NCBI GenBank assembly: GCA_946186665.1
Contig: CAMHOE010000002.1
Span: 31,014 to 95,013, forward strand
Reading direction: 5' to 3'
Length of the DNA: 64,000 nt
From: an uncultured Clostridia bacterium
GTDB lineage: Bacteria > Bacillota > Clostridia > Oscillospirales > Acutalibacteraceae
Each line of letters starts with the position of its first letter. Positions within the stretch are counted from its first letter, which is position 1. Under the pieces are notes generated by a model. That model saw only the letters and a program-made list of their open reading frames with translations, made no database searches and was not told the DNA's origin. Shown in pieces: positions 2,868 to 56,888 of this stretch. Position numbers and translations under genes: made by a program.

Positions 2868-4229
2868 TCAGCCGTCCTCATACTGATAAGAAAGCTTTAC
2901 TCTCAGTGTTCCTGCCGCTTCATTTTTCAGCACAGAAACGCCGTCTGTTTTTATCTTGTGGTTGTCGTCCAGAGTATCGTTTGCACAATCTATACAGTAG
3001 TAAAACTCGTAGGGTGCTTCATTGAACAGTTTGGTAAAATATTCATTATAGGTCATATCCGTACCAAACCTCAGAGGAACATAAGTCTCTCCCATAAGGG
3101 CTGTCTCTCTTATCTTTGCACTCAGGGTATCTGTGAGCCTTTCATCAAAGCTCTGTACCACAACACCCTCCGCATAATAGTAGTTCATGTCCTTTGATGT
3201 ACACATCGGAACAAAGAAATTGTATCTTATCAGGCTGTTTGCATCCTCTTCCCTGCGTGACTCCGATATCTCCGTTATGCTCTCGGATATGGAATGGTTA
3301 GCGCATATATACTCTGTTGTGACATTGAAATACTCATAGTTTATATTATCATCATTATCGTCCCATGTGGCATCCAGATGATACCATTCTCCGTTCATCT
3401 CCACCACGTTCCACATATGCGCAACACCGTCTGCTTCACCCCTTACGGTACTGCACACGATACCTACCCTTGTCATAAGAAGCTGTATTGCTTTGGAATA
3501 GCCCTCACACACAGCTTCTCCGTCAACGACAGCACCATATGCGGAAAAATACTGCCAGCCGTCAGAGGACGAAGTAACGCCTGTTTTATACGTACAGTTT
3601 GAGATAAGCTTATCATGAATGATTTTTTCCCTCTGATACTCAGTTCTGCCGGAGCCGACTGATGACAAGATCTCATCGACCCTCTGGTTAAAGCGGTCTA
3701 TATAAATTTCACATTCATCAGAGGATATCACAGAATAGAACTCAACTATTGTACAATCATCAACATAAGCATAGCCAAAGATATTTTCCATCCAGAATAT
3801 TTCAGGGTTATCGCTTATATAGGCATTAACGACCTCACGAATATCAAATTCAGAGAGCTTAACGCCGGGTATTCTTATTCTCGAGGTACGATATCTTCCG
3901 TTTGCATCCGGTTCATTAGTAACTCTGTACACACTCCCGTGAATTCGGTCATAGAGATCACGTTTTACATCGGTATCCAGTGCATTATAGCCTGTTTTCA
4001 CTGTAACGAGTCTATAGTTCTCAGCGGAGTAGTTATATACCTCTGTATTTATTTTTTCATACTCAGTCTCTTCTTTACCGTCATCGCTTATTTCTATTGC
4101 TTCTATATCATCATAGACACTGCCCGCCTTATTTGATGTTGTAAAAAAGAGCATAAAACAAGCTATCAAAAGAGTTACTGCAAACCCAAAAAACAACACA
4201 TAGAGTAAATTCGAAACAACCCTTTTCAT
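2868..4229 (-). CDS. Transglutaminase-like (cysteine protease fold) protein with an N-terminal TM anchor
   Basis: Contains a Cys..His..Asp core (CEGYSKAIQLL ... HMWNVVEMNGEWYHLDATWDD). I place the start at ATG 4229 (MKRVVSN), which has a GGGAGGG RBS. The ORF-track start at 4247 lies in a repeat hairpin. Confidence 0.7.
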   Translation of the reverse strand: MKRVVSNLLYVLFFGFAVTLLIACFMLFFTTSNKAGSVYDDIEAIEISDDGKEETEYEKINTEVYNYSAENYRLVTVKTGYNALDTDVKRDLYDRIHGSVYRVTNEPDANGRYRTSRIRIPGVKLSEFDIREVVNAYISDNPEIFWMENIFGYAYVDDCTIVEFYSVISSDECEIYIDRFNQRVDEILSSVGSGRTEYQREKIIHDKLISNCTYKTGVTSSSDGWQYFSAYGAVVDGEAVCEGYSKAIQLLMTRVGIVCSTVRGEADGVAHMWNVVEMNGEWYHLDATWDDNDDNINYEYFNVTTEYICANHSISESITEISESRREEDANSLIRYNFFVPMCTSKDMNYYYAEGVVVQSFDERLTDTLSAKIRETALMGETYVPLRFGTDMTYNEYFTKLFNEAPYEFYYCIDCANDTLDDNHKIKTDGVSVLKNEAAGTLRVKLSYQYEDG

Positions 4230-4241
4230 ACAACCCTCCCG

Positions 4242-4672
4242 GCGCAAGGCTTGCGCTCCCGATTCACGCTATCGTTCGCTTACGCTCACTCTGATATCCA
4301 GACCTCAACTTTTCCTGTCCGCGATTAACGGCGCAGACTTGCCAGACAATATTCCCCACCCGCCGGCGCAGGCTAAGAGCCTGCTGTTTCGGCTGTTTTA
4401 ACCGCACAAATAGTTTTATTCTCCTACTCAACTTTATGCGCCTGCATATCCCAATGTGCAATGTGCAATGTTCAATGAAATAGCTCAAAGCCCAAAGCCT
4501 CCCCTTTAGGGTAAGTGACAGAAATTTACATAGTAAATATTTGCCAGACGGGTTCCATTCAGCGAATGCACTCGCAATTCTTTACAGCACTTGCTATATT
4601 TCGTTTTCGCTAAAGCGAAAACGTACCACAACTATTCACTATTCGTTATTCACTATTCATTATTCACTATTT
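4242..4672 (+). repeat. Full-length mosaic intergenic repeat (archetype). Module order is M1 hairpin-27mer, M2, M3, M4, M5, H3 heptads, M7, M8, H2 heptads.
   Basis: M1 is gcgcaaggcttgcgctcccgattcacg. M4 is ..ccgccggcgcaggctaagagcctgctgtttcggctg. H3 is caatgtgcaatgtgcaatgttcaatg. M8 is ..ttcgttttcgctaaagcgaaaacgtaccacaa. H2 is (ctattca)n. Each module is found again at 6326-6913, 10039-10487, 18566-18818 and 38584-39100, among other sites. Confidence 0.9.
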
Positions 4673-4676
4673 CCGG

Positions 4677-6325: not shown

Positions 6326-6913
6326 GTCAGGCGGGTAACCCCGCCGGACGACTTAGAACGCATAGACTTTATTAAGAACCGTCCGCGTCACGCACCTAAA
6401 GGTGCGCTTTGGCTACTGCTGTACACGTCTACAACTGCCGAGTGGAACCCCTACGTCAAAGATTTACTATGTAAATTTTTGACACCTCCCCTTTCAGGAG
6501 AGACGGAAATAGTGAATAGTGAATGGTGAATAATGAATAGTGAATAGTTGTGGTGCGTTTTCGCTTAGGCGAAAACGAATTATAGTAAGTATAATATAAA
6601 CTACAACTTCAAACAGTACAGGCGCACATATTTACGGAGGAGGAGAAACTGTCTGCTCGAAGAGTGCAGCCGAAACAGCAGGCTCTTAGCCTGCGCCGGC
6701 GGATGGGGATGAGGGTCTGCCGGTTCCGCGCCGTTAATCGCGGACAGTAAAAGTTTTGGTTATACTAAACAGAGTGAGCTTTAGCGAACGCCAACGCGAA
6801 TCGGGTGCGCAAACCTTGCGCCGCCGTTTATCGCGGACAGGAAAATGTTTGGTCATACTATCAGAGTGAGCTTTAGCGAACGCCAACGCGAATCGGGTGC
6901 GCAGGCTCTGCGC
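6326..6913 (-). repeat. Mosaic intergenic repeat in the opposite orientation to 4242-4672. Plus-strand order is M10, M7, H2, M8, M5, M4, then (M3-M2-M1) x2.
   Basis: The reverse complement of 6666-6715 matches M4 of 4337-4396. H2 here reads gaatagtgaatagtgaatggtgaataatgaatagtgaatag. A 93-bp unit is duplicated (ccgttaatcgcgg at 6731, ccgtttatcgcgg at 6824). The last hairpin abuts the uvrC stop. Confidence 0.9.
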
Positions 6914-8777: not shown

Positions 8778-10016
8778 TCAGTAGTAAATACTCAGTATAC
8801 ATCCGGATGTGCTCACAGAATAGGATATCCCATCATTTATCCGGTCAATATCAAAAACCTTCTGCTCCACAATAAGCTCGTTCATAGCTTCATCCAATAC
8901 CTCCGGCGATGAAAACTTCACCGACAGTCCGCCGTCTGCATAGTACCATTCCGCCGCATCCTGTACATAGCTGAAATCGTAATCTTCAAAATACAAGCCG
9001 TTATATACGTAGTAATTGTACTTTGTTCCTGTTTCATCCGGTACGGGCATAGTGCCGTCTATCGTGTGAGTGTTCTTCATGTCATCATAAGATATCAGAA
9101 AGTATTCATAGGTTTTAGTATTTTCTCCGTCATCCTTTATAGGGTCGTCCCATGTCAGGTCAATAAAGTAGTATTCGCCGTCCACGCATACATAGTTCCA
9201 TTGGTGAGAACCGCTTTCTGACGCTCTTGTGCCGTTCACCTTGCCGCACTCTATGCCAAGCCTGTGCATTATCAGCTGAAAGGCAGTGGAATACCCGGAG
9301 CATATCGCAGTGTTTTCCACAAGACAGCCGTATGCTGTTGAAGCGTTCAGCAAGCCTTCATTCTCTTCCGCTTTGATAAGCGCAAGGGTTTCGGTGTCGT
9401 ATACGGTATTATTTATTATATAGTCGTGAACATAAAGTATCTTTTCATAGGTGTTCTCTTTTGAAGCGGCTTCATTCACTATATCAGATACTATACTCTC
9501 TAATTCCTTCTGAGCCTTGATTATCTCATCGTCATCATCGCTGAACAGTGTTGGAGAAACGGTTATCTCTGATTGTTCGCCGAGTGTTTTCATCTGGTAG
9601 GTAAAGCTTTTTCCAAGCCAGAAATATTCCGGATGGTCGTCAAGCACAGCATAATAGGCAGTCTTTACATCATCCTCAGCTTCATTTTCAAAGACAAATT
9701 CTGTTTCCAGCTCTTCTATCATAACTGTAAAGCGGTTATAGAGTTCCGTTTGTTTTTCGCTGAGGGTATTCTTCAGTGAATACCGATACTCCTGCATAGA
9801 GTCAGAAGACTCAGCCCATGATATTTCAGATTTTTCCTCACTGCTCTCTGCTAAGGGAGCTTCACTGTCTTCCTCAATTCCGGCACTTACAGAATGTTCC
9901 GGTTCTATCGGAGCATCATCTCTGATAAGATGTTCCCAATCCACAGAGCATCCGCCCAGAACACAAGTCGCTGCGACTGCCGCAGCCGTAATCCTTATTC
10001 CATTTTTCACTCTCAC
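8778..10016 (-). CDS. Transglutaminase-like lipoprotein, paralog of 2868-4229
   Basis: Lipobox VLGGC, an acidic linker, and a core CSGYSTAFQLI ... HQWNYVCVDGEYYFIDLTWDD. GTG start with a GGGGGA RBS. Confidence 0.7.
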   Translation of the reverse strand: MRVKNGIRITAAAVAATCVLGGCSVDWEHLIRDDAPIEPEHSVSAGIEEDSEAPLAESSEEKSEISWAESSDSMQEYRYSLKNTLSEKQTELYNRFTVMIEELETEFVFENEAEDDVKTAYYAVLDDHPEYFWLGKSFTYQMKTLGEQSEITVSPTLFSDDDDEIIKAQKELESIVSDIVNEAASKENTYEKILYVHDYIINNTVYDTETLALIKAEENEGLLNASTAYGCLVENTAICSGYSTAFQLIMHRLGIECGKVNGTRASESGSHQWNYVCVDGEYYFIDLTWDDPIKDDGENTKTYEYFLISYDDMKNTHTIDGTMPVPDETGTKYNYYVYNGLYFEDYDFSYVQDAAEWYYADGGLSVKFSSPEVLDEAMNELIVEQKVFDIDRINDGISYSVSTSGCILSIYY

Positions 10017-10038
10017 CCTTATCCCCCTTTCGCCGGCG

Positions 10039-10200
10039 GCGCAGAGCCTGCGCTCCTAATTCGCGGCGCAGAGCCTGCGCTCCCAATTCGCGGCGCAGAG
10101 CCTGCGCTCCCAATTCGCGGCGCAGAGCCTGCGCTCCCAATTCGCAGCGCAGAGCCTGCGCTCCCAATTCGCGGCGCAGAGCCTGCGCTCCCGATTCGCG
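10039..10200 (+). repeat. 27-bp tandem array x6 of module M1 (hairpin GCGCAGAGCCTGCGC plus TCCCAATTCGCG)
   Basis: GCGCAG occurs at 10039, 10066, 10093, 10120, 10147 and 10174. There are no spacers. Confidence 0.95.
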
Positions 10201-10487
10201 TTGCCGTTCGCTGAAGCTCACTCTGATATTCTGACCAAAACTTTTCCTGACCGCGATTGACGGCGCAGACATGACAGATAATCGTTCCCATCCGCCGGCG
10301 CAGCCCTTAGAGGCTGCTGTTTCGGCTGTTTCATCCGTACAAATAGTTTTATTCTCATACTCAACTTTATGCGCCTATACATCGTAAAGCTGTAGTTTAT
10401 TATATTCTTACTATGATTGTTTTCGCCGCAGCGAAAATATACCACTATTATTCATTATTAAGTCTTAAGTTTTCAGTATTCATTAAT
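10201..10487 (+). repeat. Mosaic repeat continuation: M2, M3, M4, M5, promoter-like M8 variant, and an AT-rich H5 tail
   Basis: gttcgctgaagctcactctgatatt ... ccgccggcgcagcccttagaggctgctgtttcggctg ... ctgtagtttattatattcttactatgattgttttcgccgcagcgaaaatataccactattattcattattaagtcttaagttttcagtattcatta. The tail matches 37258-37527. Confidence 0.9.
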
Positions 10488-10490
10488 TTA

Positions 10491-11564
10491 TCACACCAGC
10501 GTTCTTCCTTCGCAGTATTTGCAGAGGAGCATATCGCCGCCGAGAGGTCTGAATATTTTGGGAAGATATGCTTCTGTTGTGGTGATACAGTTTGGGTTGC
10601 AGCATTTTACATTGTGGGTATCGAAGCGTCTGGGCATGGGCTTTTTGTCGGCATTTTCAAGCATTTTCATAATGAGCGCCATTCTTGCGTACATACCGTA
10701 GATGGTCTGGATGAAGTACTTTGCCCTGTCGTCATAGTCTACATCTTCGGTTATCTCATCAACTCTGGGAAGGGGATGAAGTATCTTCATATCGTGTCTT
10801 GCAAGGCGAAGTTTTTCGCTGTCCAGTACAAACACACCCTTCTGTTTTTCGTAATCCTCAGGACTTTTGAAGCGTTCTCTCTGTATTCTTGTCATGTACA
10901 GGACATCAAGCATGGGCAGAGCTTCTGCAAGGCTCGGCACTTCTATATGGCGGCAGCCCGAAGCGTTCATTATATCCTTGATGTACTGCGGAACGGTAAG
11001 CTCCGGTGTAGATATCAGCACAAAAGTATTGCCCTTGAAATGAGACATTGTTTTTATGAGGGAATGTACAGTCCTGCCGTTTTTCAGGTCGCCGCAAAGA
11101 CCAATGCACATATTGTCAAGTGTACCCTTTTCGTTGTAAAGCGTTACAACATCTGTCAATGTCTGTGTGGGATGAAGATGTCCGCCGTCGCCTGCGTTTA
11201 TGACGGGAGCAGCAGAGTACATTGAAGCTGCCTTTGCAGTGCCTTCAAGGGAATGTCTTATTGCTATTATGTCGGCATATCCGCCAACAACAGTCACTGT
11301 ATCTTTAAGACTCTCGCCCTTTGAAACAGAGGAATTCTGCGGATTGTCAAAGCCTATGATACTTCCCCCAAGACGGAGCATGGCAGTCTTGAAGGACATC
11401 TGTGTTCTTGTTGAAGGCTCATAAAAAAGCGTGGCGAGTATCTTTCCCCTGCAAGCCTCTGAATACGCTGAGGGATCGTTCATTATATTATTTGCAAGCT
11501 CTATAATTTCTATAAGCTCCTCTTTTGAAAGACTGTCAAGATCTATTAAATGTTTTGTTTTCAT
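10491..11564 (-). CDS. pyrB: Aspartate carbamoyltransferase catalytic chain with a C-terminal PyrI-type zinc-domain extension
   Basis: Carries STRTQ, HPTQ and HPLPR motifs. The last ~55 aa (KCCNPNCITTTE...LLCKYCE) match the PyrI Zn-binding domain pattern. I place the start at ATG 11564 (MKTKHL), which has a GGGTGAGGA RBS. The ORF-track start is a TTG inside that RBS. Confidence 0.9.
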   Translation of the reverse strand: MKTKHLIDLDSLSKEELIEIIELANNIMNDPSAYSEACRGKILATLFYEPSTRTQMSFKTAMLRLGGSIIGFDNPQNSSVSKGESLKDTVTVVGGYADIIAIRHSLEGTAKAASMYSAAPVINAGDGGHLHPTQTLTDVVTLYNEKGTLDNMCIGLCGDLKNGRTVHSLIKTMSHFKGNTFVLISTPELTVPQYIKDIMNASGCRHIEVPSLAEALPMLDVLYMTRIQRERFKSPEDYEKQKGVFVLDSEKLRLARHDMKILHPLPRVDEITEDVDYDDRAKYFIQTIYGMYARMALIMKMLENADKKPMPRRFDTHNVKCCNPNCITTTEAYLPKIFRPLGGDMLLCKYCEGRTLV

Positions 11565-11579
11565 ATCCTCACCCTTTTT

Positions 11580-11750
11580 CAATGTTCAATGTACAATGTG
11601 CAATGTGCAATTAATAACTTCAAAGCTCAAAGCTTCACTCAGCGAAGAGATCCACAGATCCTATTGCACTTACTATAATTCATTTTTGCTTTAGCAAAAA
11701 TGTACCACAACTATTCGTTATTCACTATTCACTATTCATTATTCACTATT
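11580..11750 (+). repeat. Short mosaic repeat: H3 heptads, M7 fragment, M8 (TATAAT plus hairpin), H2 heptads
   Basis: caatgttcaatgtacaatgtgcaatgtgcaatt ... cttactataattcatttttgctttagcaaaaatgtaccacaa ... (ctattca)n. Confidence 0.9.
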
Positions 11751-11756
11751 ATAATT

Positions 11757-11783
11757 AAAGCCTGTCGGTATACGGCAGGCTTT
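11757..11783 (-). terminator. Hairpin immediately after the ftsZ stop
   Basis: aaagcctgtcggtatacggcaggcttt forms an 11-bp stem with one G-U pair. The downstream U-tract is weak. Confidence 0.5.
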
Positions 11784-11789
11784 AAGAGA

Positions 11790-13103
11790 TTATTTGTTGT
11801 TGAAGATGTCCATTATATCCATGAATGAATCGTCTGAGTCACCGTTATTAACGGCCGGCTTTGCCGGTGCAGGCTTTGTGGAGCTGCTTACGGGAGCCTT
11901 AGTGTTTGCATTGGGGTATACGGGAGCTGCCTGCTGGGGCGGCTCGGGCTGCGGTGCAGGACGATTGTACATTGGCTGCTGATAGGGGTTGTGCTGAGGT
12001 CTGGGCTGTCTCTCAGGCTGAGGCTTGGTTACGGTTCCGAAGCGCGCCGGGTCCGGTCTGGGAGCTACAGCTGTGCCATACTGAAAGGGCGAAGCAGGTT
12101 TCTTCTCATCCTTCTTAGCACCGCCTAAAGCCGGCGGAAAACCGCTGTCTGTTGTGGGGAAGCCTGTAGCGATAACTATTACGCTGATAGCGTCCTCCAT
12201 CTCCTCATCAAGAGCAGCACCCCAGATGATGATAGCGTTCTCGTCTGCCTGCTCGGAAATCATTGTTGAAGCATCCTGTATCTCATCAAGTCCGATATCA
12301 GGAGATGCCTTTATGTTTACGATAAGTCCCTTTGCACCCTGAATAGATGTGCCGAGAAGCGGACTGGATATTGCATTCTGAGCTGCGATCTTTGCCTTGT
12401 CTTTACCGGAAGCAACGCCCACACCCATAAGTGCGTAGCCTGCGTCCTTCATGACGGAGGTAACGTCTGCAAAGTCAAGGTTTACAAGACCGGGTATTAC
12501 GATAAGGTCTGTGATACTCTGAACGCCCTGACGGAGAACATCGTCTGCTGCAAAGAATGCGTTCTGGAGTGTTATCTTCTCATCGCTGATGTGCTTGAGT
12601 CTTTCATTAGGGATAACGATAAGTGAGTCTACGTGCTGCTTGAGCTTCTGGATGCCCTGCTCAGCCTGTTCCATACGGCGCTTGCCCTCGAACAGGAACG
12701 GTGTTGTAACGATACCTACTGTGAGGATACCCATTTCCTTAGCGACCTCTGCAACTACAGGAGCAGCACCTGTGCCGGTACCGCCGCCCATACCTGCGGT
12801 GATAAATACCATATCTGTATCCTGAAGAAGCTCTGCTATTACCTCACGGCTCTCTTCAGCGGCTTTTTCGCCTACTTCCGGCTTAGAGCCTGCGCCCTTG
12901 CCGTGTGTTATCTTTTCGCCTATCTGTACCTTCTGTGTAGCCTTTGAGCGGTTCAGAGCCTGCTTATCGGTGTTGATAGAGATAAACTCCACACCGGTAA
13001 CATACTCCACCATTCGGTCGATAGCGTTTCCGCCGCCGCCGCCGACTCCTACAACCTTAATATGCACTATGCTTTCAACTTCGTTTTCAAATTCGTAAGG
13101 CAT
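11790..13103 (-). CDS. ftsZ: Cell division protein FtsZ
   Basis: GGGTGTG tubulin signature and [10 protein letters not shown], with a long P/Q-rich C-terminal linker. Start at ATG 13103 (MPYEFE), which has a GGAGGGAG RBS. Confidence 0.95.
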
Positions 13104-13317
13104 TTGTTTGACTCCCTCCAAAATTAACATCTGACAGAATTTCTGCTGTCTTACATTCTGACTTGCTTTATTTTTTTACATACAACTACTATTAATTTAC
13201 CACTTTTCCACCGGAATTTCAATACGATAAAGGACTTTTTACACAGATTTATCATTCTTTAGGTAATAAGCCTATATTATAACGTCATTTTTGTTGATTA
13301 TGACAAGGCATAATTAA

Positions 13318-14931
13318 TTACTCTTCATAGTACTCATCGCCGGTATAATCATAGGTCTCATCGTCCGCATAATCTTCATCTTCTTCGTAATAGTACGCAT
13401 CCCCGAAATCATAATCTTCATCCGTGCCGTCATCGTCTGTATACTCGCCGTCATCATATGTGCCGTCATCGTCTGTATATTCGCCGTCATCATCCGTGCC
13501 GTCATCGTCTGTATACTCGCCGTCATCGTCCGTGCCGTCATCGTCCGTATACTCGCCGTCATCATATGTGCCGTCATCGTCCGTATACTCGCCGTCATCA
13601 TCCGTGCCGTCATCGTCCGTATACTCACCGTCATCATATGTGGTCTCATCGTCGGTTTCCTCTCCGGTGGTTTCGGGGTCGCCGGTGTCAGCGTCACTTG
13701 TCTCATCCTCATTGGCGCCGCTTTCTTCTGCTTTGCTGCTTTCAGACGAGGACTCTGTCTTTTTCTTTGTGTCCGAAGTTGTCTTAGGCTTTGATACCTT
13801 TGACGCCTGAGCGGAGCTTTCATCAGCCTGTGAGCTGTAGTATGACTTTCCTCCCTCAGCGGAGCAAAGAGACACGTCAAGTATTCCTTTGTCCTTTTCG
13901 GAGAGACTCTTTTCGATTATCTTCTTTGCCGTTTTGAGCTTATAGTCAATGCTTTCCGGCGTACCGATGACGATACGCAGTCCCTGCTTGGTGGTAAGCG
14001 TTATCTTTGACATATTGGAAATATCAATGATATCGATCGTACCCAGCTTATATTTCTCCTCAGCGTCAAGGATCTCGTTGATATATCCCTCTACGTTTTC
14101 ATCCTTGTACTTTACAGCAGAGGACAGCTTCGGTTCTTTGAGCTTCGCACCCATTATCTTGGGTATGTTTGTATTTCGCAGGGTGTCGGAAATATCTATT
14201 ATCTTTCCGCTCTCGCTGAGCAGAACATACTTACCCTCACTCTCGATAACGCAGGTGGGAGTTGCTTCCTTGACTGTTATCACAATCCTGTTGAACAGTT
14301 CTTTGCTGATAGTTACCTTTTCTATGTACGGGAATTTCTCCCAGATATTTTTTTCTCCCGGAGATGTATTGCAAAGGATGAGGTTATCACCCTGTTTTAT
14401 CATGCAGGAGGATTTTATCTCATCTCCGCTGTAGCGTGATTTTCCCTTTACTTCTATTTCGTCTATCTTGAAGAATACCGTAAGGGAAAGCACAAAGCAT
14501 ACAGACACAAGCACAAGCAAGGTCACCGCATAAAACAGCACTCTTAGTACCTTGCGCTTATAGGGGCTTCTGGGTTCCTTCGCCGGAGGCAAAGGCTTTA
14601 CATAGTGCAGACCGCTTTCTCTCGGAGGTCTTTTCAGCATATTCTCGGCACTCTTGTCTATCTCTCCCTGAAACGCCATGTCCTCTTTATAGCTTCCGGC
14701 ATCATTCATCTTGATGCTGTTTTTGCTTCTGTTCTTTTTAAGACTGGTATTGCTTATTTTCCTTACCGGCTGCGGAGTACTCTTTGCACTTCCTGAGCTT
14801 TTCTCGTTTGGATTTCTTCTGCCCTTTTGAGGCGGAGATTTTCCGCTGCCGGCGGTTCCTTTTATATTTGACGGTATGGGTTTTTTCTTGCCTTCACCGC
14901 TTCGGTCTTTACCCGATGGCTTTTTGCTCAT
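13318..14931 (-). CDS. ftsQ: FtsQ/DivIB-type cell division protein with a basic N-terminus, one TM segment, POTRA/FtsQ domains and a long acidic repetitive C-terminal tail
   Basis: Sits between murG and ftsZ. TM segment VLFYAVTLLVLVSVCFVLSLTVFF is followed by IDEIEVKGKSRYSGDEI (POTRA-like). The tail is (DGEYTDDDGT[YD]D)n. Confidence 0.75.
   Translation of the reverse strand: MSKKPSGKDRSGEGKKKPIPSNIKGTAGSGKSPPQKGRRNPNEKSSGSAKSTPQPVRKISNTSLKKNRSKNSIKMNDAGSYKEDMAFQGEIDKSAENMLKRPPRESGLHYVKPLPPAKEPRSPYKRKVLRVLFYAVTLLVLVSVCFVLSLTVFFKIDEIEVKGKSRYSGDEIKSSCMIKQGDNLILCNTSPGEKNIWEKFPYIEKVTISKELFNRIVITVKEATPTCVIESEGKYVLLSESGKIIDISDTLRNTNIPKIMGAKLKEPKLSSAVKYKDENVEGYINEILDAEEKYKLGTIDIIDISNMSKITLTTKQGLRIVIGTPESIDYKLKTAKKIIEKSLSEKDKGILDVSLCSAEGGKSYYSSQADESSAQASKVSKPKTTSDTKKKTESSSESSKAEESGANEDETSDADTGDPETTGEETDDETTYDDGEYTDDDGTDDDGEYTDDDGTYDDGEYTDDDGTDDDGEYTDDDGTDDDGEYTDDDGTYDDGEYTDDDGTDEDYDFGDAYYYEEDEDYADDETYDYTGDEYYEE
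13424..13639 (-). repeat. In-frame 36-bp tandem repeat x6 encoding the acidic FtsQ tail
   Basis: The unit gtgccgtcatcgtctgtatactcgccgtcatcatat starts at 13424, 13460, 13496, 13532, 13568 and 13604. Confidence 0.9.
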
Positions 14932-14962
14932 TACTTTTCATTCCCTTCACAAAAGCCAGAAC

Positions 14963-15091
14963 TCAATATTCAATGTACAATGTGCAATATTCAATGTTCA
15001 ATCTTTCACTCAAAACACTTACTATAATTCGTTTTAGATTTATCAAAAACGCACAGTCATTCCACATTCCACTTTTCACATTCCACATTTT
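14963..15091 (+). repeat. Short mosaic repeat: H3 heptads, M8 variant (TATAAT), reverse-complement H1 heptads abutting the murG stop
   Basis: tcaatattcaatgtacaatgtgcaatattcaatgttcaatc ... cttactataattcgttttag ... cattccacattccacttttcacattccacatttt. Confidence 0.9.
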
Positions 15092-23279: not shown

Positions 23280-23435
23280 TTTACTATAAATGTTCAATGA
23301 ATTATACAGACATTTGAATACCATCACCGCACTATTGTTTGCGGGCACATACCTATCCTTTCACTCAGAAGCCGCAGCGCGAATTGACAGCGGAGGCACT
23401 CCGCCGCGAATCGGGTGCGCAAGCCGGGCGCAGCA
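23280..23435. repeat. Partial mosaic repeat (M8/H3 fragments and two reverse-orientation M1 units) overlapping the 3' end of rsmH
   Basis: tttactataaatgttcaatg ... cgcgaattgacagcggaggcactccgc and cgcgaatcgggtgcgcaagccgggcgc. Compare 38712-38765. Confidence 0.75.
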
Positions 23436-25430: not shown

Positions 25431-25632
25431 ACCCCTCCGGCAATAATTTACATTGTAAATCATTGTCAGAGGGGTTTTCGCGCTAACTTGTGGTTCGTAT
25501 GAAAACTGCGTCCATATCAAACCTACTATAATTCGATTTTGCTTTAGCAAAATCGTACCGCAACTATTCACTATTCTCTATTCACTATTCTCTATTCACT
25601 ATTCTCTATTCACTATTCTCTATTCACTATTT
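25431..25632 (+). repeat. Mosaic repeat: M7 (stem acccctc/gaggggt around ATTTACATTGTAAAT), M8, and a long H2 array with 14-bp super-period x5
   Basis: cctactataattcgattttgctttagcaaaatcgtaccgcaa then (ctattcactattct)x5. The final unit contains the mnmA TAG stop (25627-25629). Confidence 0.9.
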
Positions 25633-26703
25633 CTGTCTTCCTCCGCAGATCACGAGGTCGCCGATGTACGCTACTATAGCCTGACCGGGAGTTATTGCCC
25701 TCTGGGGTACGTCGAACACAACTTTTATACTGCCGTCTGCTAATGGGTAGAGAGTCGCAGGCTGTTCCTTCTGATTGTATCTTACTTTTGCGCTTACCCT
25801 TATCGGTTCATCAGGACAAGCTATTGAGAGCCAGTTCACATCATCTGCATACACTGTTGATGAAAACAGATCTTCATTATCTCCCAGCACGACTGTGTTG
25901 TTTTCTATATTTTTTGATATCACATAAGCCGGCTTTCCAAGCGCGATACCCAAGCCTTTGCGCTGTCCGATAGTGTAGCGTATTATTCCGTCGTGCTCTC
26001 CAAGTACATTTCCGTCCTTATCAACAAAGCTGCCCTTCGGGAACTTCCTTCCGGTATACTTTTCGATAAAGCTTGCGTAATCTCCGTCAGGTACAAAGCA
26101 GATATCCTGACTGTCCGGCTTTGAAGCATTGAGCAGTCCGTACTGCCGTGCTATCTCTCTGGTTTCAGATTTTGTAAGCTCCCCCACCGGAAACAGCGTT
26201 TTGCTGAGCTGCTCCTGTGTCATACCGTACAGAACATAGCTCTGGTCTTTGCTTTCATCTGCGCCTTTTCTAAGGGTGTATCGCCCTGTGCTTTCATCAT
26301 ATCTCCTGCGGACATAATGTCCCGTAGCAATATAGTCATTTTCAAGAAGCTCTGCCCTTTTCAGCAAAGCATCAAATTTTATAAAACGGTTGCAGTCGAT
26401 ACACGGATTAGGAGTAAGACCGTTTATATACGAATTGTTGAACTTGTCTATCACACATTCTCTGAAGCGTTCACCGAAGTTATATACATAATGGTCAAAG
26501 CCAAGCTTCTGCGCTACGAAACGCGCATCCTCAACATCATCCAGCGAACAGCAGCTTTTATGCTTATCAAGCTGTATATCCTCATTTGTGAAGAGTCTCA
26601 GGGTCGCACCTGTAACATCATAGTCTTTCATAAGAACAGCCGCCGCTACAGAGCTGTCTACTCCGCCGCTCATCGCCACAAGAACTTTTTTTCTTTCACT
26701 CAT
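25627..26703 (-). CDS. mnmA: tRNA 2-thiouridine(34) synthase MnmA
   Basis: VLVAMSGGVDSSVAA PP-loop, 358 aa from ATG 26703 (MSERKK), GAGGGA RBS. Confidence 0.95.
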   Translation of the reverse strand: MSERKKVLVAMSGGVDSSVAAAVLMKDYDVTGATLRLFTNEDIQLDKHKSCCSLDDVEDARFVAQKLGFDHYVYNFGERFRECVIDKFNNSYINGLTPNPCIDCNRFIKFDALLKRAELLENDYIATGHYVRRRYDESTGRYTLRKGADESKDQSYVLYGMTQEQLSKTLFPVGELTKSETREIARQYGLLNASKPDSQDICFVPDGDYASFIEKYTGRKFPKGSFVDKDGNVLGEHDGIIRYTIGQRKGLGIALGKPAYVISKNIENNTVVLGDNEDLFSSTVYADDVNWLSIACPDEPIRVSAKVRYNQKEQPATLYPLADGSIKVVFDVPQRAITPGQAIVAYIGDLVICGGRQK

Positions 26704-26716
26704 ATCTGTTGGTCCC

Positions 26717-27415
26717 TCAATCATTTATAACATCCCAGGGTGTCAGCATAGCTTCTATCCTGCCGGACATACTTCCGTTATCCGTAAGAAATATCACAGC
26801 AAGACGCCGGCTTCGCTGAGTACGCTTTTCAAACTCACTTCTGACCTCAAAGAGAGTGGCTGTTTCAGGCAAAAACAAGAACTTCTCGTTATCATGCTTA
26901 TCAGGCGGAAGCAGTTCTCTCAGGTCATCAAGTATCATATCATCCCTCAGACATTCAAAACCGTTTCTGATAGCGTACCCGAAAATTGTTCCAATGCTGA
27001 ACACTCCCACAAGCTCACCGCTTTCAAGCACCGGCACATGAGAAAATCCCAGCTTCTGCATTTTCTTCATGACGGTCTGCACCTTCTGATTAGGGCTTGC
27101 TTTCAGGATATCCTCAAAATGTGTTGCATATGATATAGCAAGCGGAGGTTTGCGCAGATACTCCGTAACTTCACGGAGCGACTGTATTATAGAATCGGAA
27201 GGCTCTACTACCGGCTCACCGTCCAGTTCGGAATGGTGCGAAAGAAAGTTGCGTATCTCTCTGCACATATTGAGCCGTTCTTTAAAGGCTCTGCCCTCCT
27301 TATCGTTTATAAACCTGACAACAGGACTTCCGTACTTTTCATCGTAATTATATTTCTTTGTCAGTTCCTCTTCAAGCATACGATACTGATTAAGGAACTC
27401 ATCCGCCTTACTCAT
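26717..27415 (-). CDS. CBS-pair domain protein with an N-terminal helical domain carrying an RNxxxH (HEPN-like) motif
   Basis: Two CBS-like repeats (..VMKKMQKLGFSHVPVLESGELVGVFS.. and ..RLAVIFLTDNGSMSGRIEAMLTPWDVI). The N-terminal domain ends in CREIRNFLSHH. ATG 27415 has an AGGTGA RBS. Confidence 0.6.
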   Translation of the reverse strand: MSKADEFLNQYRMLEEELTKKYNYDEKYGSPVVRFINDKEGRAFKERLNMCREIRNFLSHHSELDGEPVVEPSDSIIQSLREVTEYLRKPPLAISYATHFEDILKASPNQKVQTVMKKMQKLGFSHVPVLESGELVGVFSIGTIFGYAIRNGFECLRDDMILDDLRELLPPDKHDNEKFLFLPETATLFEVRSEFEKRTQRSRRLAVIFLTDNGSMSGRIEAMLTPWDVIND

Positions 27416-29112: not shown

Positions 29113-29239
29113 TTTAAAATGTGGAATGTGGAAAGTGGAAAGTGGAATAGCACTTAGTGCCGCTCCTTGAACGAGAAGCTTTTGAACACTTTGGGCTTTG
29201 AGCTTTCCACTGACCACTAATCACTAATCACTAATCATT
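29113..29239 (+). repeat. Compact mosaic element bounded by heptad arrays: H1, central hairpins, reverse-complement H4
   Basis: aaaatgtggaatgtggaaagtggaaagtggaat ... gcacttagtgc ... ctttgggctttgagcttt ... ccactgaccactaatcactaatcactaatcatt. The last heptads encode the trmL C-terminus and its TAG stop. Confidence 0.9.
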
Positions 29240-36305: not shown

Positions 36306-37202
36306 TCAAAGGTTATCGAGTCCCTCCTTGTTTTCAATATTTACAGCAGTAACATCTGCATTTATCTTTTTGATAAGACCCGTAAGCGTCTTTCCTACGC
36401 CGACTTCAATAAATCTGTCTGCGCCCTGAGCTATCATATTTTCAACTGTTGTCTGCCATCTTACGGGGTGGTTTATCTGCTTTGAAACAAGCTCCTTCAT
36501 ATCCCCTGCATAAGGCTGTGCGTTATAGTTTGCATATACAGGGAGCTTCGGCTCCTTCAGCTCAATATCCTTAAGATATTCTGCCATAGACTCAGACGCC
36601 TTATCCATAAACGGAGAATGGAACGCACCGCTTACAGCAAGTTTTACAGCCTTGCCCTTAGCTTCCTTGACCTTTACGCAAAGCTCATCTATCTCGTCCT
36701 CAGCCGCTGCAACGACTGTCTGTGCCGGACTGTTGTAATTTACAGGATATGCTTTTTTGAAGCCTGCACAGATCTCCTCAGTCTGCTGAGGGGTAAGCTT
36801 CATAACGGCAGCCATTGCTCCGGGTTCTTCCTTTGCAGCCTTGTCCATAAGCTCCGCTCTCCTGCACACAAGCCTGAAAGCATCCTCATACGAGAGTACA
36901 TCTGCAAACGCAAGCGCTGCTATCTCTCCAAGAGAAAATCCAGCGACAAAGTCCGGCTCCACTCCTTTTTCCTTTACAGCAGCTGCCGCAGCAAGGTCGG
37001 TAATAAACACACAAGGCTGTGTATTTATTGTCACTGAAAGCTCCTCTTTAGTACCCTCAAAGCACTGTCTGAGCGTACCGGGTCTTATACTCTCTGCCAT
37101 ATCGAACACTGCTTTTGCAGCAGGCGAACACTCATAAAGCTCCTTACCCATTCCGGGATACTGAGCGCCCTGTCCCGAAAACACCAATGCCGTCTTAGCC
37201 AT
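36306..37202 (-). CDS. fabD: Malonyl CoA-ACP transacylase
   Basis: ALVFSGQGAQYPGMG and GFSLGE active site, 298 aa. Confidence 0.9.
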   Translation of the reverse strand: MAKTALVFSGQGAQYPGMGKELYECSPAAKAVFDMAESIRPGTLRQCFEGTKEELSVTINTQPCVFITDLAAAAAVKEKGVEPDFVAGFSLGEIAALAFADVLSYEDAFRLVCRRAELMDKAAKEEPGAMAAVMKLTPQQTEEICAGFKKAYPVNYNSPAQTVVAAAEDEIDELCVKVKEAKGKAVKLAVSGAFHSPFMDKASESMAEYLKDIELKEPKLPVYANYNAQPYAGDMKELVSKQINHPVRWQTTVENMIAQGADRFIEVGVGKTLTGLIKKINADVTAVNIENKEGLDNL

Positions 37203-37257
37203 CCGTATTCCTCCGTTTTATATTATTTTGTGTATATTTTGTGTAACATGAAAACCT

Positions 37258-37527
37258 CTGAAGTTGCAGTTTATATTATACTCACTATAGGGAACCTCTA
37301 AAAACCTCCCTCACGGCGATTTTGCTATGTCTTTTTCCGTATACTTCGTTGTTAAGCCTTTTAATACATAAAGTATTAATGCGGCTTTCCGCCTCGTCTA
37401 CGAAAAAATCCATATACGCAAACTCGCTCGTGTTCCGGTTTTTAGAGAACCCCTATAATTGTTTTCGTTGTACGAAAACAAAACCACTATTATTCATTTT
37501 TAAGTTTTAAGTTTTCAGTATTCATTA
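37258..37527 (+). repeat. Mosaic repeat (promoter-like M8 variant plus H5 tail, same type as 10381-10487) interrupted by a 164-bp insertion
   Basis: gaagttgcagtttatattatactcacTATA [insertion] TATAattgttttcgttgtacgaaaacaaaaccactattattcatttttaagttttaagttttcagtattcatta is colinear with 10388-10487 once the insert is removed. Confidence 0.85.
37290..37453. mobile_element. MITE-like non-autonomous insertion (164 bp) with imperfect 17-nt terminal inverted repeats and a TATA target-site duplication
   Basis: Left end is GGGAACCTCTAAAAACC. The reverse complement of the right end is GGGGTTCTCTAAAAACC (14/17 match). TATA flanks it at 37286-37289 and 37454-37457. It splits the TATAAT box of module M8. 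No ORF inside. Confidence 0.65.
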
Positions 37528-37530
37528 TTA

Positions 37531-38490
37531 TTATTTTGCCCATCTGATAACGCAGCTGCCTGTAGTAAGGCCTGCGCCAAAAGCACACATAGCGATAATG
37601 TCGCCCTTTTTCAGCAGACCTGCGCGGTTAGCCTCATCCAGAGCAAGCGGAACGCTTCCGGATGATGTATTTCCGTAGTGATTTACATTGCAGAAGAATT
37701 TCTCTCTGGGTATTCCAAGATTTTTCGCAGAAGCGTTAATTATTCTGATATTTGCCTGATGCGGTATAACATGGTCAACATCGTCCTCTGTAAGCCCTGC
37801 ATCGCCAATAGATTTTTTTATACCTGTTGCCATAGCATTTACGGCAAATTTATATACTTCATTACCTGCCATATGCAAAACAGCTCTTTCCTCTTCATGC
37901 TTATAGAAGGGTGAAGAGTTAGTACCGTGAGGAATTCTGAGCACCTCATCATTTCCGTTTGCTGTAAGGTTTATAGAGAGAAGGTCATCGCCTTCGCCCA
38001 GAACGGCAGCAGCACCGCCGTCACCGAAAAGCACGCAGGTAGAGCGGTCCTTCCAGTCAGTGATATTGGAAAGGTTATCCATAGAAACGACCAGAACGTA
38101 TTTTACTTTTTTACGGACAAAATATCCGTCTGCGATATCAAGCGCATAAATGAAGCCCGAACACGCAGCATTCACATCAAAAGCCGGACAGGTAGCACCT
38201 ATTTCTTTTTGTATCATACAGCCCTGTGAGGGTGTGATATTCTCGCCTCTCATAGTAGAGCAGATTATAAGGTCAAGCTCCTCAGGCTTAACGCCTGCAT
38301 CTTCAAGAGCGGCGGTTGCGGCTTTTACAGTAAGCTCTGTAATAGTCTCATCCTTGCAGACTCTGCGTTCTTCTATACCGGTTCTTGTTTTTATCCATTC
38401 ATCGTTTGTATCGACCATTGTAGACAGTTCATCATTTGTAAGAATATATTCAGGCACTGCCTTACCCGTTCCAAGAATACTGAAGCTCAT
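37531..38490 (-). CDS. fabH: 3-oxoacyl-ACP synthase III
   Basis: 319 aa with active-site AACSGF, and His/Asn motifs (HQAN, GNTSSGS). Confidence 0.9.
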   Translation of the reverse strand: MSFSILGTGKAVPEYILTNDELSTMVDTNDEWIKTRTGIEERRVCKDETITELTVKAATAALEDAGVKPEELDLIICSTMRGENITPSQGCMIQKEIGATCPAFDVNAACSGFIYALDIADGYFVRKKVKYVLVVSMDNLSNITDWKDRSTCVLFGDGGAAAVLGEGDDLLSINLTANGNDEVLRIPHGTNSSPFYKHEEERAVLHMAGNEVYKFAVNAMATGIKKSIGDAGLTEDDVDHVIPHQANIRIINASAKNLGIPREKFFCNVNHYGNTSSGSVPLALDEANRAGLLKKGDIIAMCAFGAGLTTGSCVIRWAK

Positions 38491-38583: not shown

Positions 38584-39100
38584 CGCAGAGCCTGCGCTCC
38601 CGATTCGCACTCTCGTTCGCTAAAGCTCACTCTGATATTCAAACCGAACATTCACTGCCCGCGTTTAACGGCGCAAATTTGTCAGACAATATTCCCCATC
38701 CGCCGGCGCAGGCGCAGAGCCTGTGCTCCCGATTCGCGGCGGAGCGCCTCCGCTGTCGATTCGCGCTCTCGTTCGCTAAAGCTCACTCTGACAATATGAC
38801 CAATACTTTTCCTGCCCGCGTCGGACGGCGCAGAACCAGCAGACATCCATCCCCATCCGCCGGCGCAGCCTTAGGGCTGCTGTTTCGGCTATACTCTCTG
38901 AACAGAAAGTTTTTTTGCTCACTCAACCTTATGCGCCTGTATATTCCAATGTACAATGTTCAATGTAAAATTTTCATTATTCTGTACCAAAACTACAGAC
39001 GTGAACGAAAATAGCCAAAGTGCTCCTCTATGGAGCACGACGCGGACGTTCCTTAGCATAGTTTATGCGTTCTAAGTCGTCCAGTGCGGTCACGCACCGG
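38584..39100 (+). repeat. Large mosaic repeat: M1-M2-M3-(partial M4)-M1-M1'-M2-M3-M4-M5-H3-spacer-M10(rc)
   Basis: cgcagagcctgcgctcccgattcgc / gcgcagagcctgtgctcccgattcgcg / gcggagcgcctccgctgtcgattcgcg; two copies of gttcgctaaagctcactctga; ccgccggcgcagccttagggctgctgtttcggct; ccaatgtacaatgttcaatg; ..atgcgttctaagtcgtccagtgcggtcacgcacc. Confidence 0.9.
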
Positions 39101-41753: not shown

Positions 41754-43070
41754 ATGAAAGTTAAAATTGTCACATTAGGATGTAAAGTAAATCAGTTTGA
41801 ATCGCAGGCGATGTTCAGGGATCTTATGGACAACGGCTTTGAGATCGTGGGCGAAAACGAAAAAGCCGATATATCCATCATAAACTCCTGCGCTGTAACT
41901 CAGGTCAGTGAGCAGAAGGCGGTAAAACTCATACGCCGCACAAGAAGAGAAGCTCCCGATACCGTCATTGTACTTACAGGATGTATGGCGCAGGCATTTC
42001 CGGAATCAGGCAACCGCCTTGATGAAGTGGATATAATACTTGGCAACAAGCGCAGAAAGGATCTTGTACCCACTTTAAAAAAATACTTTGCCGACAGACA
42101 AAAGCTGACATTTGTTGAGGACTACTCAAAGCATGACGAATACGAGAGTCTGTTTGTAGACGATTTCATAAACCGTACAAGGGCATTCCTGAAAATAGAG
42201 GACGGCTGCAACCGTTTCTGTTCTTACTGCATAATCCCCTATGCAAGGGGCAGGGTACGTTCATGTTCCATTGATTATATAAAGGAAGAGATAAAAGCTT
42301 TTGCCGCAAACGGCTATAAAGAGGTAGTGCTTATCGGCATAAACCTGTCCGCTTACGGCAGCGATATCGGACTGAAATTTTCCGACGCAGTAAAAGCCGC
42401 CTGTGAGAGTGCCGATATCAGGATAAGGCTCGGTTCACTGGAGCCGGAGTCTATGGATATAGACACGCTCCGTCTGCTTGCGCAATACGAAAACTTTTGT
42501 CCCCAGTTTCATCTGTCACTGCAAAGCGGCTGTGACGAAACGCTTAAGCGCATGAACCGACACTACACGACCGCAGAATACGCCGAGATAGTAAAAAACA
42601 TCCGCAGTGTATTTGAAAACCCTTCTATCACCACAGATGTAATGGTAGGCTTTGCCGGCGAGACGGAGGAAGAGTTCAGGAAGTCTATGGAATTTGTAGA
42701 GAGCATCGGATTTGCTAAGGTACACATTTTCCCATATTCACGCCGTGCAGGGACCGCAGCAGACAAAGCGCCGGATCAGGTATCGCCGGAAATAAAGAAG
42801 CAGCGTGCCGCACTTATGGCTGAGGTTGCGCAAAGAAGCACTGCTGCCTTTTTAGAGTCACAGATTGGCAGGACAGAGCAGGTACTTATTGAATCGCGCA
42901 ACAAAGACGGCTTATACGAAGGTTACACAAAAAACTACACCCCCGTACTCGTAAACACAGACGACACCTCCATAGGCAATCTCCTCACCGTAACCCTCGT
43001 GCAGAGCCTGCACTCCCAATTCGCGGCGGCGTTCGCTAAAACTCACTCAGACATTCTGACCGAAACTTGA
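41754..43070 (+). CDS. mtaB: Radical-SAM methylthiotransferase, MtaB-type (tRNA t6A37 methylthiolation)
   Basis: MKVKIVTLGCKVNQFESQAM N-terminal UPF0004 domain, a CNRFCSYC radical-SAM cluster, and a TRAM-like end. ATG 41754 has an AAAGGA RBS. The last 23 codons are repeat modules M1-M3. Confidence 0.8.
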   Translation: MKVKIVTLGCKVNQFESQAMFRDLMDNGFEIVGENEKADISIINSCAVTQVSEQKAVKLIRRTRREAPDTVIVLTGCMAQAFPESGNRLDEVDIILGNKRRKDLVPTLKKYFADRQKLTFVEDYSKHDEYESLFVDDFINRTRAFLKIEDGCNRFCSYCIIPYARGRVRSCSIDYIKEEIKAFAANGYKEVVLIGINLSAYGSDIGLKFSDAVKAACESADIRIRLGSLEPESMDIDTLRLLAQYENFCPQFHLSLQSGCDETLKRMNRHYTTAEYAEIVKNIRSVFENPSITTDVMVGFAGETEEEFRKSMEFVESIGFAKVHIFPYSRRAGTAADKAPDQVSPEIKKQRAALMAEVAQRSTAAFLESQIGRTEQVLIESRNKDGLYEGYTKNYTPVLVNTDDTSIGNLLTVTLVQSLHSQFAAAFAKTHSDILTET

Positions 43071-43336
43071 CTGCCCGCGTTTCTCCGCCCAACACGCCCC
43101 TTACGGTGCGCTTATGGGCGGTTTTGGTTTTGGAGGAAAGTTAAAGTCGTGTACTGTAATAGCCAAAGTGTTCCCTATGGAGCACGATGCGGACGGTTCA
43201 GACAAACATAGATGCGTTCTAAGTTGTCCAGTGCGGTCACGCACCGACGCGGACGGTTATATCAAAAGCAGCTGCGTTGTTAAGTCGTCCTGCGGGGTCA
43301 CCCGCTGCGTTGTTAAGTCGTCGGCCGGGTCACCCG
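42999..43336 (+). repeat. Mosaic repeat beginning inside the mtaB 3' end: M1-M2-M3, spacer, M10(rc) with an internally triplicated arm
   Basis: gtgcagagcctgcactcccaattcgcgg cggcgttcgctaaaactcactcagacattctgaccgaaact ... atagccaaagtgttccctatggagcacgatgcggacgg ... gcgttctaagttgtccagtgcggtcacgcacc / gcgttgttaagtcgtcctgcggggtcacccgc / gcgttgttaagtcgtcggccgggtcacccgc. Confidence 0.9.
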
Positions 43337-43392: not shown

Positions 43393-43468
43393 TGGTGGGA
43401 ACAATAGGGCTCGAACCTATGACCCTCTGCTTGTAAGGCAGATGCTCTCCCAGCTGAGCTATGCTCCC
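43393..43468 (-). tRNA. tRNA-Val (anticodon TAC), CCA encoded
   Basis: The reverse complement GGGAGCATAGCTCAGCTGGGAGAGCATCTGCCTTACAAGCAGAGGGTCATAGGTTCGAGCCCTATTGTTCCCACCA folds as a cloverleaf with anticodon loop CTTACAA. Confidence 0.95.
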
Positions 43469-43494
43469 ATTTACACTTTTCAATCGGAAAAAGT

Positions 43495-43581
43495 TGGTGC
43501 GGGTAACAGGACTTGAACCTGCACCTCCTTGCGAAGACCAGCACCTGAAGCTGGCGCGTCTGCCAATTCCGCCATACCCGC
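43495..43581 (-). tRNA. tRNA-Leu (anticodon CAG), long variable arm, CCA encoded
   Basis: Reverse complement is GCGGGTATGGCGGAATTGGCAGACGCGCCAGCTTCAGGTGCTGGTCTTCGCAAGGAGGTGCAGGTTCAAGTCCTGTTACCCGCACCA, with anticodon loop TTCAGGT. Confidence 0.95.
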
Positions 43582-56042: not shown

Positions 56043-56232
56043 AAAAAATGTGGAATTTGGAAAGTGGAAAGTGGAATTATTTGTGAACTCAAGGCTTGCT
56101 GTTGTTCCGGCTTTTGCCTGAACCATAGTTGCCTCTCTTAAAAGAGAAGAAGCTTTAACTATTCAACTATCCACTAATCATTAATCATTAATCACTAACC
56201 ACTAACCACTAACCACTAACCACTAACCACTG
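56043..56232 (+). repeat. Compact mosaic element bounded by heptad arrays: H1 plus conserved flank, central spacer, long reverse-complement H4 array (about 9-10 units)
   Basis: aaaaaatgtggaatttggaaagtggaaagtggaatt atttgtgaactcaaggcttgct ... ccactaatcattaatcattaatcactaaccactaaccactaaccactaaccactaaccactg. It ends 5 nt from the signal peptidase stop. Confidence 0.9.
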
Positions 56233-56237
56233 AATTT

Positions 56238-56888
56238 TCAGGATACGAAGCCGAATTTATCAAAGGGCGCTATGCGGAAAAACGCCTTGCCTATAATATT
56301 CTCTACAGGGATAAGTCCGATTTTTACGCTTCTGCTGTCCAGTGAGTCCTCACGGTTGTCTCCCATAACAAATACATAGCCCTCCGGAATAACATCAGGT
56401 ATCTCTGTAGGATTCGGCCGCTGTATGGTCTTACCCTTTATATATGGCTCATCCAGAACTGTACCGTCAACTGTCACTTCATTGGTTTCGTAGTCTATGG
56501 AAAGCTTCTGTCCCTCTGTAGCGATGATTCTCTTTACAATAGGCTCGTTATATTTTTCTCCGTGGGTAATAATTACAATATCACCACATGCGGGAGTATA
56601 CATAAAGCTTGCAACGATAAGTCTGTCATCATTCTGGAGGGTATCGTTCATAGACCTGCCGTTGACTGTGACCTGTCTGAAAAAGAATGTCATTATCAGC
56701 AGCACTACCACAAGTGCAGCAAAAAGAGTATTTGCCCATTCAAACACGATTTCCGAAATGGGTACTCTGTCATCATCTTCTGTTTCCTCAGCTGCCTCTA
56801 AAGCTGCTTCTCCGACCGACCCTGCGGATAATTCGTATGATCTTTCCTCGTCTATATCCTCGATTGTTTCCTTTGTTCTCTTTGACAT
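56238..56888 (-). CDS. lepB: Signal peptidase I (S26A) with an acidic N-terminal extension
   Basis: Catalytic-Ser box VNGRSMNDTL, Lys box (KRIIATEGQ) and GDNREDSLDSR. Confidence 0.9.
   Translation of the reverse strand: MSKRTKETIEDIDEERSYELSAGSVGEAALEAAEETEDDDRVPISEIVFEWANTLFAALVVVLLIMTFFFRQVTVNGRSMNDTLQNDDRLIVASFMYTPACGDIVIITHGEKYNEPIVKRIIATEGQKLSIDYETNEVTVDGTVLDEPYIKGKTIQRPNPTEIPDVIPEGYVFVMGDNREDSLDSRSVKIGLIPVENIIGKAFFRIAPFDKFGFVS

Follow-up and report, generated by a model that had tools for sequence, protein, structure and literature searches.

The window (the whole 64-kb stretch of DNA that was analysed) carries, in a neighbourhood where all genes lie on the minus strand, fabH (3-oxoacyl-ACP synthase III; 37531-38490), whose ortholog in a related strain, L121, carries Pfam ACP_syn_III, and downstream of it fabD (malonyl-CoA:ACP transacylase; 36306-37202; PF00698), with fabG next. 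The 328-bp spacer between fabH and fabD holds a 164-bp element (37290-37453), inserted 3 nt past the short hairpin that trails fabH and ~85 nt ahead of the fabD start codon. The segment 37286-37457 reads TATA, then GGGAACCTCTAAAAACC, 130 bp and GGTTTTTAGAGAACCCC, then TATA again. Both copies of the TATA target-site duplication were read directly; the left (37286-37289) agrees with the 4-bp rule found across the family described below, and the right (37454-37457) with the alignment of the interrupted module. The left 17-bp TIR (GGGAACCTCTAAAAACC; 37290-37306, plus strand) is of the same 17-mer type that delimits full-length IS5-family elements. The right TIR (37437-37453, minus strand, on which it reads GGGGTTCTCTAAAAACC) is its inverted counterpart, with 14/17 positions matching and three mismatched. 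The insert with TIRs and TATA flanks that the initial annotation described can thus be read directly from the DNA.

That annotation had also stated that the insert has no ORF, which is nearly right. One ORF is present, of 42 aa on the minus strand (37285-37413), and it is unconserved among 24 relatives; the longest ORF in related copies ranges from 9 to 42 aa. Within the 64-kb window no second copy of the element was found by sensitive BLAST, the 17-mer end had no third match at up to three mismatches (0.2 expected by chance), and no transposase is present. The element has no match in Rfam 15 at gathering score, and a permissive Rfam 15 scan of 37150-37600 gave only chance-level hits (E 4.7-6.6). 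There was likewise no protein match to the 164 bp, a plasmid BLAST returned one match at chance level, and a full-text literature search for the end sequence returned unrelated primers only.

The element interrupts a repeated intergenic module, M8. The left part of this module (37240-37289) aligns with a paralog at 10388-10414, and its right part (37458-37530, directly after the fabH stop codon) comprises a short hairpin, GTTTTCGTTGTACGAAAAC, and an AT-rich repeat tail; this right part belongs to family D7 and is 84% identical to 10411-10485. When 37290-37453 and one TATA are deleted, the restored site can be aligned, through the junction, to the 10388-10445 module and to those near 4595, 11674, 25527 and 15016 (five paralogous intergenic modules in all). 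The modules have a conserved core, CTTACTATAATTC, followed by the short hairpin and then an AT-rich heptamer tail. Compared with the 10388 copy, the left flank has a local score of 16 (maximum of 15 in 2000 shuffles) and the right flank a score of 51 (shuffle maximum, 20). The restored M8 had been called colinear with 10388-10445, and this stands: the interrupted and uninterrupted copies are homologous on both flanks, each of which scores above all shuffles. The TATAAT motif that the insertion splits is real, lies on the plus strand and is conserved in the modules. As a promoter element it is at most putative: a promoter-like match on the plus strand occurs in one module only, and the counts are not above those in shuffles. 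The proposal that elements here insert into one another holds in part: M8 is repeated in the window, interrupted at this site and absent from the spacer of L121. Mobility of M8 itself would go beyond this.

Modules of the M8 type (10411-10485, 11674-11748, 25527-25601, 15016-15054 and 37453-37527) always lie directly 3′ of a minus-strand gene; the genes that precede them are ORFs 10491-11582, 11790-13130 and 25627-26724, and fabH. Read on the minus strand, they consist of the heptamer tail, GTGGTAC, a hairpin with an 8-bp stem, and then GAATTATAGTAAG. Because no T-run follows the stem they are not like a classical terminator, and they look more like a shared 3′-end cassette.

At the boundary between element and flank, a promoter-like hybrid site facing fabD is predicted on the minus strand (37275-37302), with TTTAGA as a −35-like hexamer within the TIR, a 16-nt spacer and the TATAAT of the flank (10/12 consensus matches). 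On reading the uninterrupted module, no comparable −35 is seen at the equivalent distance. The element may affect fab expression, in that the insertion could supply a promoter for fabD, a strong hairpin in the read-through transcript, or both. In strain L121, whose FabD is 97% identical, the fabH-fabD spacer is 156 bp long (3845-4000), compared with 37203-37530 in the window; both M8 and the MITE are missing from it, two GACCGGAAGGG units are present, and it shares only the last ~40 bp before fabD with the window. Because a strain this close has a different spacer, the intergenic spacers and repeat modules of the lineage must turn over fast. The junction expected of an empty site, ACTCACTATAATTGTTTTCG, had no match in metagenome contigs, and neither this search nor the L121 spacer yielded an orthologous empty allele.

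Other repeats are plentiful in the window. Six tandem 27-bp units (GCGGCGCAGAGCCTGCGCTCCCAATTC) lie at 10009-10224, each with a small GC-rich palindrome (families D3, D5, D6 and D18); relatives of this unit are dispersed as single or double copies in other spacers (38585-38870, 4215-4373, 43001-43092, 6770-6913 and 23380-23431), usually followed by the same ~90-bp tail. Many spacers have arrays of 7-bp repeats of the CACTATT, CACTAAC and CAATGTG types (D4, D9 and D13), at 4628-4675, 11707-11768, 25560-25635, 56163-56238, 29204-29239, 14957-15005 and 11580-11628. Three tandem 205-bp units, 96-100% identical, span 774-1442, with a related partial copy near 6357-6452 (D2, D11 and D15). At 13343-13702, inside a long minus-strand ORF (13318-14931), the sequence repeats with a 36-bp period, divided into sub-periods of 15 and 21 bp, and probably encodes a repetitive stretch of the protein. 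Two minus-strand tRNA genes at 43396-43581 are the only Rfam matches in the window.

Copies elsewhere were sought in one scan of 185,579 species-representative genomes for the paired core CTCTAAAAACC-N(115-145)-GGTTTTTAGAG. This pattern of paired ends occurs at at least 120 loci in other genomes, so that the other copies with TIRs that the transposition reading leads one to expect do exist. Among the matches listed, most come from gut and rumen MAGs of Ruminococcus, Oscillospiraceae and 'Clostridia', in which several loci per genome are frequent, and a minority come from other phyla, with Spirochaetota, Bacteroidota, Thiotrichales and Francisella represented. Conservation continues for six bases beyond the core at either end, as GG(G/T)NNN, which extends the TIRs to 17 bp. 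Copies among the matches listed are 149-178 bp long, and nearly all are intergenic (2/84 scorable listed copies lie inside a long ORF). Several contigs end within a copy, and this family therefore breaks assemblies of Ruminococcus and Oscillospiraceae MAGs.

A perfect 4-bp direct repeat immediately outside the TIRs flanks 83/119 of the listed copies (82/118 by a stricter count). As controls, the next 4-mer outward matched in 0/118, and randomly re-paired flanks gave a mean of 7 matches and a maximum of 17 among the 118 listed copies. The match rate peaks sharply at 4 bp in the listed copies. The duplications are AT-rich (ATAA, TATA, TTAA, TAAA and TATT, among others), and some, such as CTGT, AGTC, GAAA and TTGC, have no TA. 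The initial annotation had expected TA or TATA duplications at this and other copies; flanking duplication is confirmed, with TATA at both ends here and perfect repeats at 82/118 listed copies, but the rule is one of length, 4 bp and AT-rich in general rather than specific for TA. Across the 120 listed MITE loci (859 kb), no end pairs 0.6-4 kb apart were found, and no recurrent family of transposase-like ORFs was evident among clusters judged by size, unannotated.

Shorter and clustered forms also occur. A 44-bp relative (L123, 3061-3104) has two almost abutting TIRs and the duplication TTAT, a TIR-TIR palindrome lies in a rumen MAG (L036, near 3862), and 99-bp copies with the duplication TATA were found in viral contigs (L140, 3983-4081; L142, 6459-6557). 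Five IMG/VR contigs classed as viral (L131-L135) contain 159-bp members, four of them with perfect 4-bp duplications (ATAA or TTAT), and the family is therefore also present in (pro)phage-associated DNA. In L016 two copies lie end to end (3820-3880, with a right end at 3836 and a left end at 3862), and additional degenerate solo ends occur in the same 8-kb stretch; from this, some MAGs have a high local density of elements.

Clustering the listed copies on their interiors alone gave 25 clusters. The cluster that contains the window copy comprises 25 elements, each 161-164 bp in length, from Ruminococcus sp., Oscillospiraceae and Eubacterium sp. CAG:786. Across 24 members of this subfamily the core CTCTAAAAACC does not vary, and 12/24 have in common the GGGGTT/GGGAAC asymmetry of the TIRs. 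No sampled copy is more than 78% identical to the one in the window, which therefore did not arrive recently from any of the lineages sampled; judging by this divergence, the window copy may be old and immobile. Within single MAGs identity is higher: MAG CAKSPH01 has four copies on different contigs that are 96.9-99.4% identical, and MAG JAZRCW01 has copies on different contigs that are 93-96% identical, a pattern that indicates recent spread within these two genomes. With at least 120 loci elsewhere, 4-bp duplications at 82/118 listed copies and near-identical copies at different sites within single MAGs, the earlier reading of the insert as a MITE-like transposition is upheld.

The entire 164 bp folds as a long imperfect hairpin (z = −9.9 and −9.1 as RNA, −7.8 as DNA), with the minus-strand RNA fold at −74 kcal/mol (z = −9.9). 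Covariation was assessed in an alignment of 24 subfamily members (A2), for which RNAalifold predicts 57 pairs. Standard pairs fill 98% of the cells (24 sequences by 57 pairs), and two-sided changes are seen at 24/57 pairs, at some of which three or four kinds of pair occur. In 500 column shuffles no value reached any of the observed covariation measures, and pairing fell to 30-43% when partners were slid by 1-3 columns. The internal loops are conserved, asymmetric and purine-rich; one of them is GGAA/AGGGA in 13 sequences and GGGA/AAGGA in 11. One strand folds better than the other in 24/25 subfamily members, by ~8 kcal/mol on average; for the window copy, the better-folding strand is the one transcribed together with fabH and fabD. 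Between co-directional genes the listed copies as a whole have no orientation bias, the better-folding strand being co-transcribed in 18 cases and antisense in 17, and thus there is no sign of the host using the element in one orientation. The stem would seem to be maintained at the level of the element, with end-to-end meeting, or arm-to-arm correction in quasi-palindromes, as candidate causes.

An autonomous parent, which the initial annotation had raised as a possibility, was found by scanning viral contigs for single 17-mers and then metagenome contigs. The ends of the MITEs, GGNNNNCTCTAAAAACC, match the ends of full-length IS5-family insertion sequences of 1.2-1.3 kb. One of these, on L122 (6626-7921), is 1296 bp long, with the ends GGGCACCTCTAAAAACC and GGGAACCTCTAAAAACC (GGGCACCTCTAAAAACC at 6626 and GGTTTTTAGAGGTTCCC at 7921) and CTCT on both sides. 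Its transposase of 367 aa has the Pfam domains DDE_Tnp_1 and DUF772 and scores 273 bits (cut-off, 140) with the NCBIfam model NF033581, 'IS5 family transposase'. A Diaphorobacter plasmid (L125) encodes a 66%-identical transposase in a 1273-bp element with the ends GGGAACCTCTCAAAACC and the duplication TCAC. A profile from five such transposases identified 80 metagenome loci, 59 of which have a span of 1.0-2.0 kb (mostly 1.2-1.3 kb) bounded by GGNNNNCTCTAAAAACC-type ends at up to three mismatches; perfect 4-bp duplications flank 19 of these 59 spans.

Three gut-derived, low-GC elements (L207, L217 and L218), whose proteins score above the NF033581 cut-off, have GGTAACCTCTAAAAACC at both ends, exactly the variant found in seven members of the window subfamily, and exact 17-mers are present in L122, L207, L217, L218 and L227. 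The L218 protein has very many relatives (2905 sequences fall into one 90% cluster, typically on contigs of ~1.3 kb), and a Christensenellales MAG that carries one (L226) has a 1230-bp insertion sequence with the duplication ATAT. On L227 a 159-bp MITE, a member of the largest subfamily, and a full insertion sequence (1447-2673, duplication TGAA) are 1.2 kb apart, the one case in which MITE and insertion sequence were seen on the same contig; the same insertion sequence occurs on L228 at another site, with the duplication GGGA. The transposases with matching ends are ~28% identical to those of Escherichia coli IS5 and ISKpn26. Beyond the 17-bp ends, the insertion sequences and the MITEs have unrelated interiors, so that simple internal deletion does not explain the MITE; the link between the two rests on ends and duplication length rather than on descent by deletion. 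There is precedent for assigning MITEs to IS5-family parents by their shared TIRs (PMC4596501). IS701, with a 4-bp duplication and the TIR consensus ---YACT-Y--YR (PMC2266710), was also considered as parent and was dropped when the full-length elements with identical ends proved to be of the IS5_4 type.

We conclude that the 164-bp element is very probably a non-autonomous MITE that was put into a TATA site between fabH and fabD by an IS5-family DDE transposase acting in trans. The enzyme would be of the NCBIfam transpos_IS5_4 type, with the domains DUF772 and DDE_Tnp_1. It would recognise the 17-bp ends GGNNNNCTCTAAAAACC and cut the target with a 4-bp stagger, repair of which would leave the AT-rich 4-bp duplication. 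Folding back of the hairpin, joining both ends or otherwise aiding spread, would be the most likely reason for its upkeep. Which transposase moved the window copy, and when, we infer rather than observe.

Other origins for the element fit the evidence less well. The ends and duplication length would also be those of a full-length IS5-family element that lost its interior in place, but 24 other copies of 161-164 bp with the same internal hairpin occupy unrelated sites in other genomes, and the subterminal regions of the insertion sequences show no relationship to the interior of the element, which makes an in-place remnant very unlikely. The TA within the local TATA, and the AT-rich targets of many family members, would suit a TA-duplicating MITE of the IS630/Tc1-mariner type, like Correia or RUP. 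We take this to be extremely unlikely given the sharp peak of the match rate at 4 bp (83/119 listed copies), the duplications without TA (CTGT, AGTC, GAAA and TTGC) and ends that match the IS5 family and not IS630. An immobile palindrome (a terminator or REP-like sequence, for instance) with a chance pair of TATA in AT-rich DNA is hardly credible as an identity for the element. That reading would suit a strong hairpin lying between genes in a genome with many intergenic repeats, but it would account neither for the family-wide duplication rule nor for near-identical copies at different loci in one MAG, the stem has no T-run after it, and the break in M8 is precise, the module being colinear with its paralogs apart from it. 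REP/BIME sequences (20-40-bp palindromes, RAYT-linked and without duplications) were set aside as a candidate identity for an element of 164 bp with TIRs and 4-bp duplications.

A different kind of alternative, compatible with the MITE reading, is that the element is primarily a functional structured hairpin of RNA or ssDNA (an mRNA stabiliser, RNase III site, attenuator or small RNA) that is incidentally mobile or has been exapted. The conserved hairpin would then benefit the host, or the RNA of the element itself, and not transposition. The strong covariation along the whole stem points this way, as do the conserved asymmetric loops with their two-sided A/G swap (13 versus 11 sequences), the consistency of the better-folding strand in 24/25 members and, in the window, the coincidence of that strand with the one transcribed through fabH and fabD. 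Against it, the listed copies are balanced in orientation relative to co-directional genes (18 versus 17), Rfam has no match, and one ancestral change apiece could explain the strand asymmetry and the A/G swap. The arms of quasi-palindromes can, moreover, co-evolve by template switching without selection. On balance we consider a primarily functional hairpin unlikely.

The closest known systems are the insertion sequences of the IS5 group. IS5 itself is reported to prefer YTAR targets, the targets here being AT-rich in general, and the group makes 4-bp duplications and has GG ends (ISfinder summary). IS5-group elements (IS5, ISKpn26; transpos_IS5_4 type) resemble the window element in their 17-bp ends starting with GG, their 4-bp duplication and the presumed enzyme, a DDE transposase with DUF772 and DDE_Tnp_1; the window element differs in having no transposase gene, in its length (164 bp versus 1.2-1.3 kb) and in its unrelated hairpin interior. 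Several bacterial families of 100-170 bp are likewise intergenic, often co-transcribed and able to form long hairpins: Correia/NEMIS in Neisseria, ERIC in enterobacteria, RUP in Streptococcus pneumoniae and bcr1 in the Bacillus cereus group. Correia, ERIC and RUP duplicate TA, and bcr1 duplicates TTTAT; the window family differs from all four in its 4-bp duplication, its ends and its presumed transposase family. Among plant MITEs, those of the Tourist/PIF-Harbinger type are mobilised by the superfamily that includes bacterial IS5 and prefer AT-rich targets, but are found in eukaryotes, duplicate 3 bp (TWA) and depend on a second, Myb-like protein. BrickBuilt, MITE293 and MITE700 of Porphyromonas gingivalis and ATR of Neisseria are, like the window element, short, non-coding, multi-copy and intergenic, with TIRs identical or nearly so to those of IS5-family elements, although their ends are GAGACCTTTGCA, as against GGNNNNCTCTAAAAACC here (PMC4596501). 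BrickBuilt has an internal minisatellite and irregular duplications (PMC4596501), whereas duplications in the window family are regular at 4 bp and the hairpin spans the whole element.

The element is a clear but ordinary kind of mobile DNA that leaves general concepts unchanged; its one less ordinary aspect is the strongly maintained, strand-asymmetric hairpin. The compensatory changes at 24/57 pairs, the conserved asymmetric purine-rich loops and the better-folding strand suggest that this hairpin might be a selected, strand-specific RNA or ssDNA structure in IS5-dependent MITEs across gut Clostridia, a proposal to which we give rather little credence. If it were true, the hairpin would be needed for transposition, which is unusual for DDE cut-and-paste, or would act on host transcripts such as the message of the fab operon. 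For the window, one part of a very repeat-rich intergenic landscape now has a firm mechanistic explanation, as a piece that very probably arrived by transposition. More broadly it defines a large MITE family, with the 17-bp ends GGNNNNCTCTAAAAACC, a 4-bp AT-rich duplication, a length of about 145-175 bp and a whole-length hairpin, and ties this family to an abundant IS5-type insertion sequence of gut Clostridia. The family can serve in annotation and in strain typing by filled and empty sites, and offers a test case for long hairpins in bacterial MITEs.
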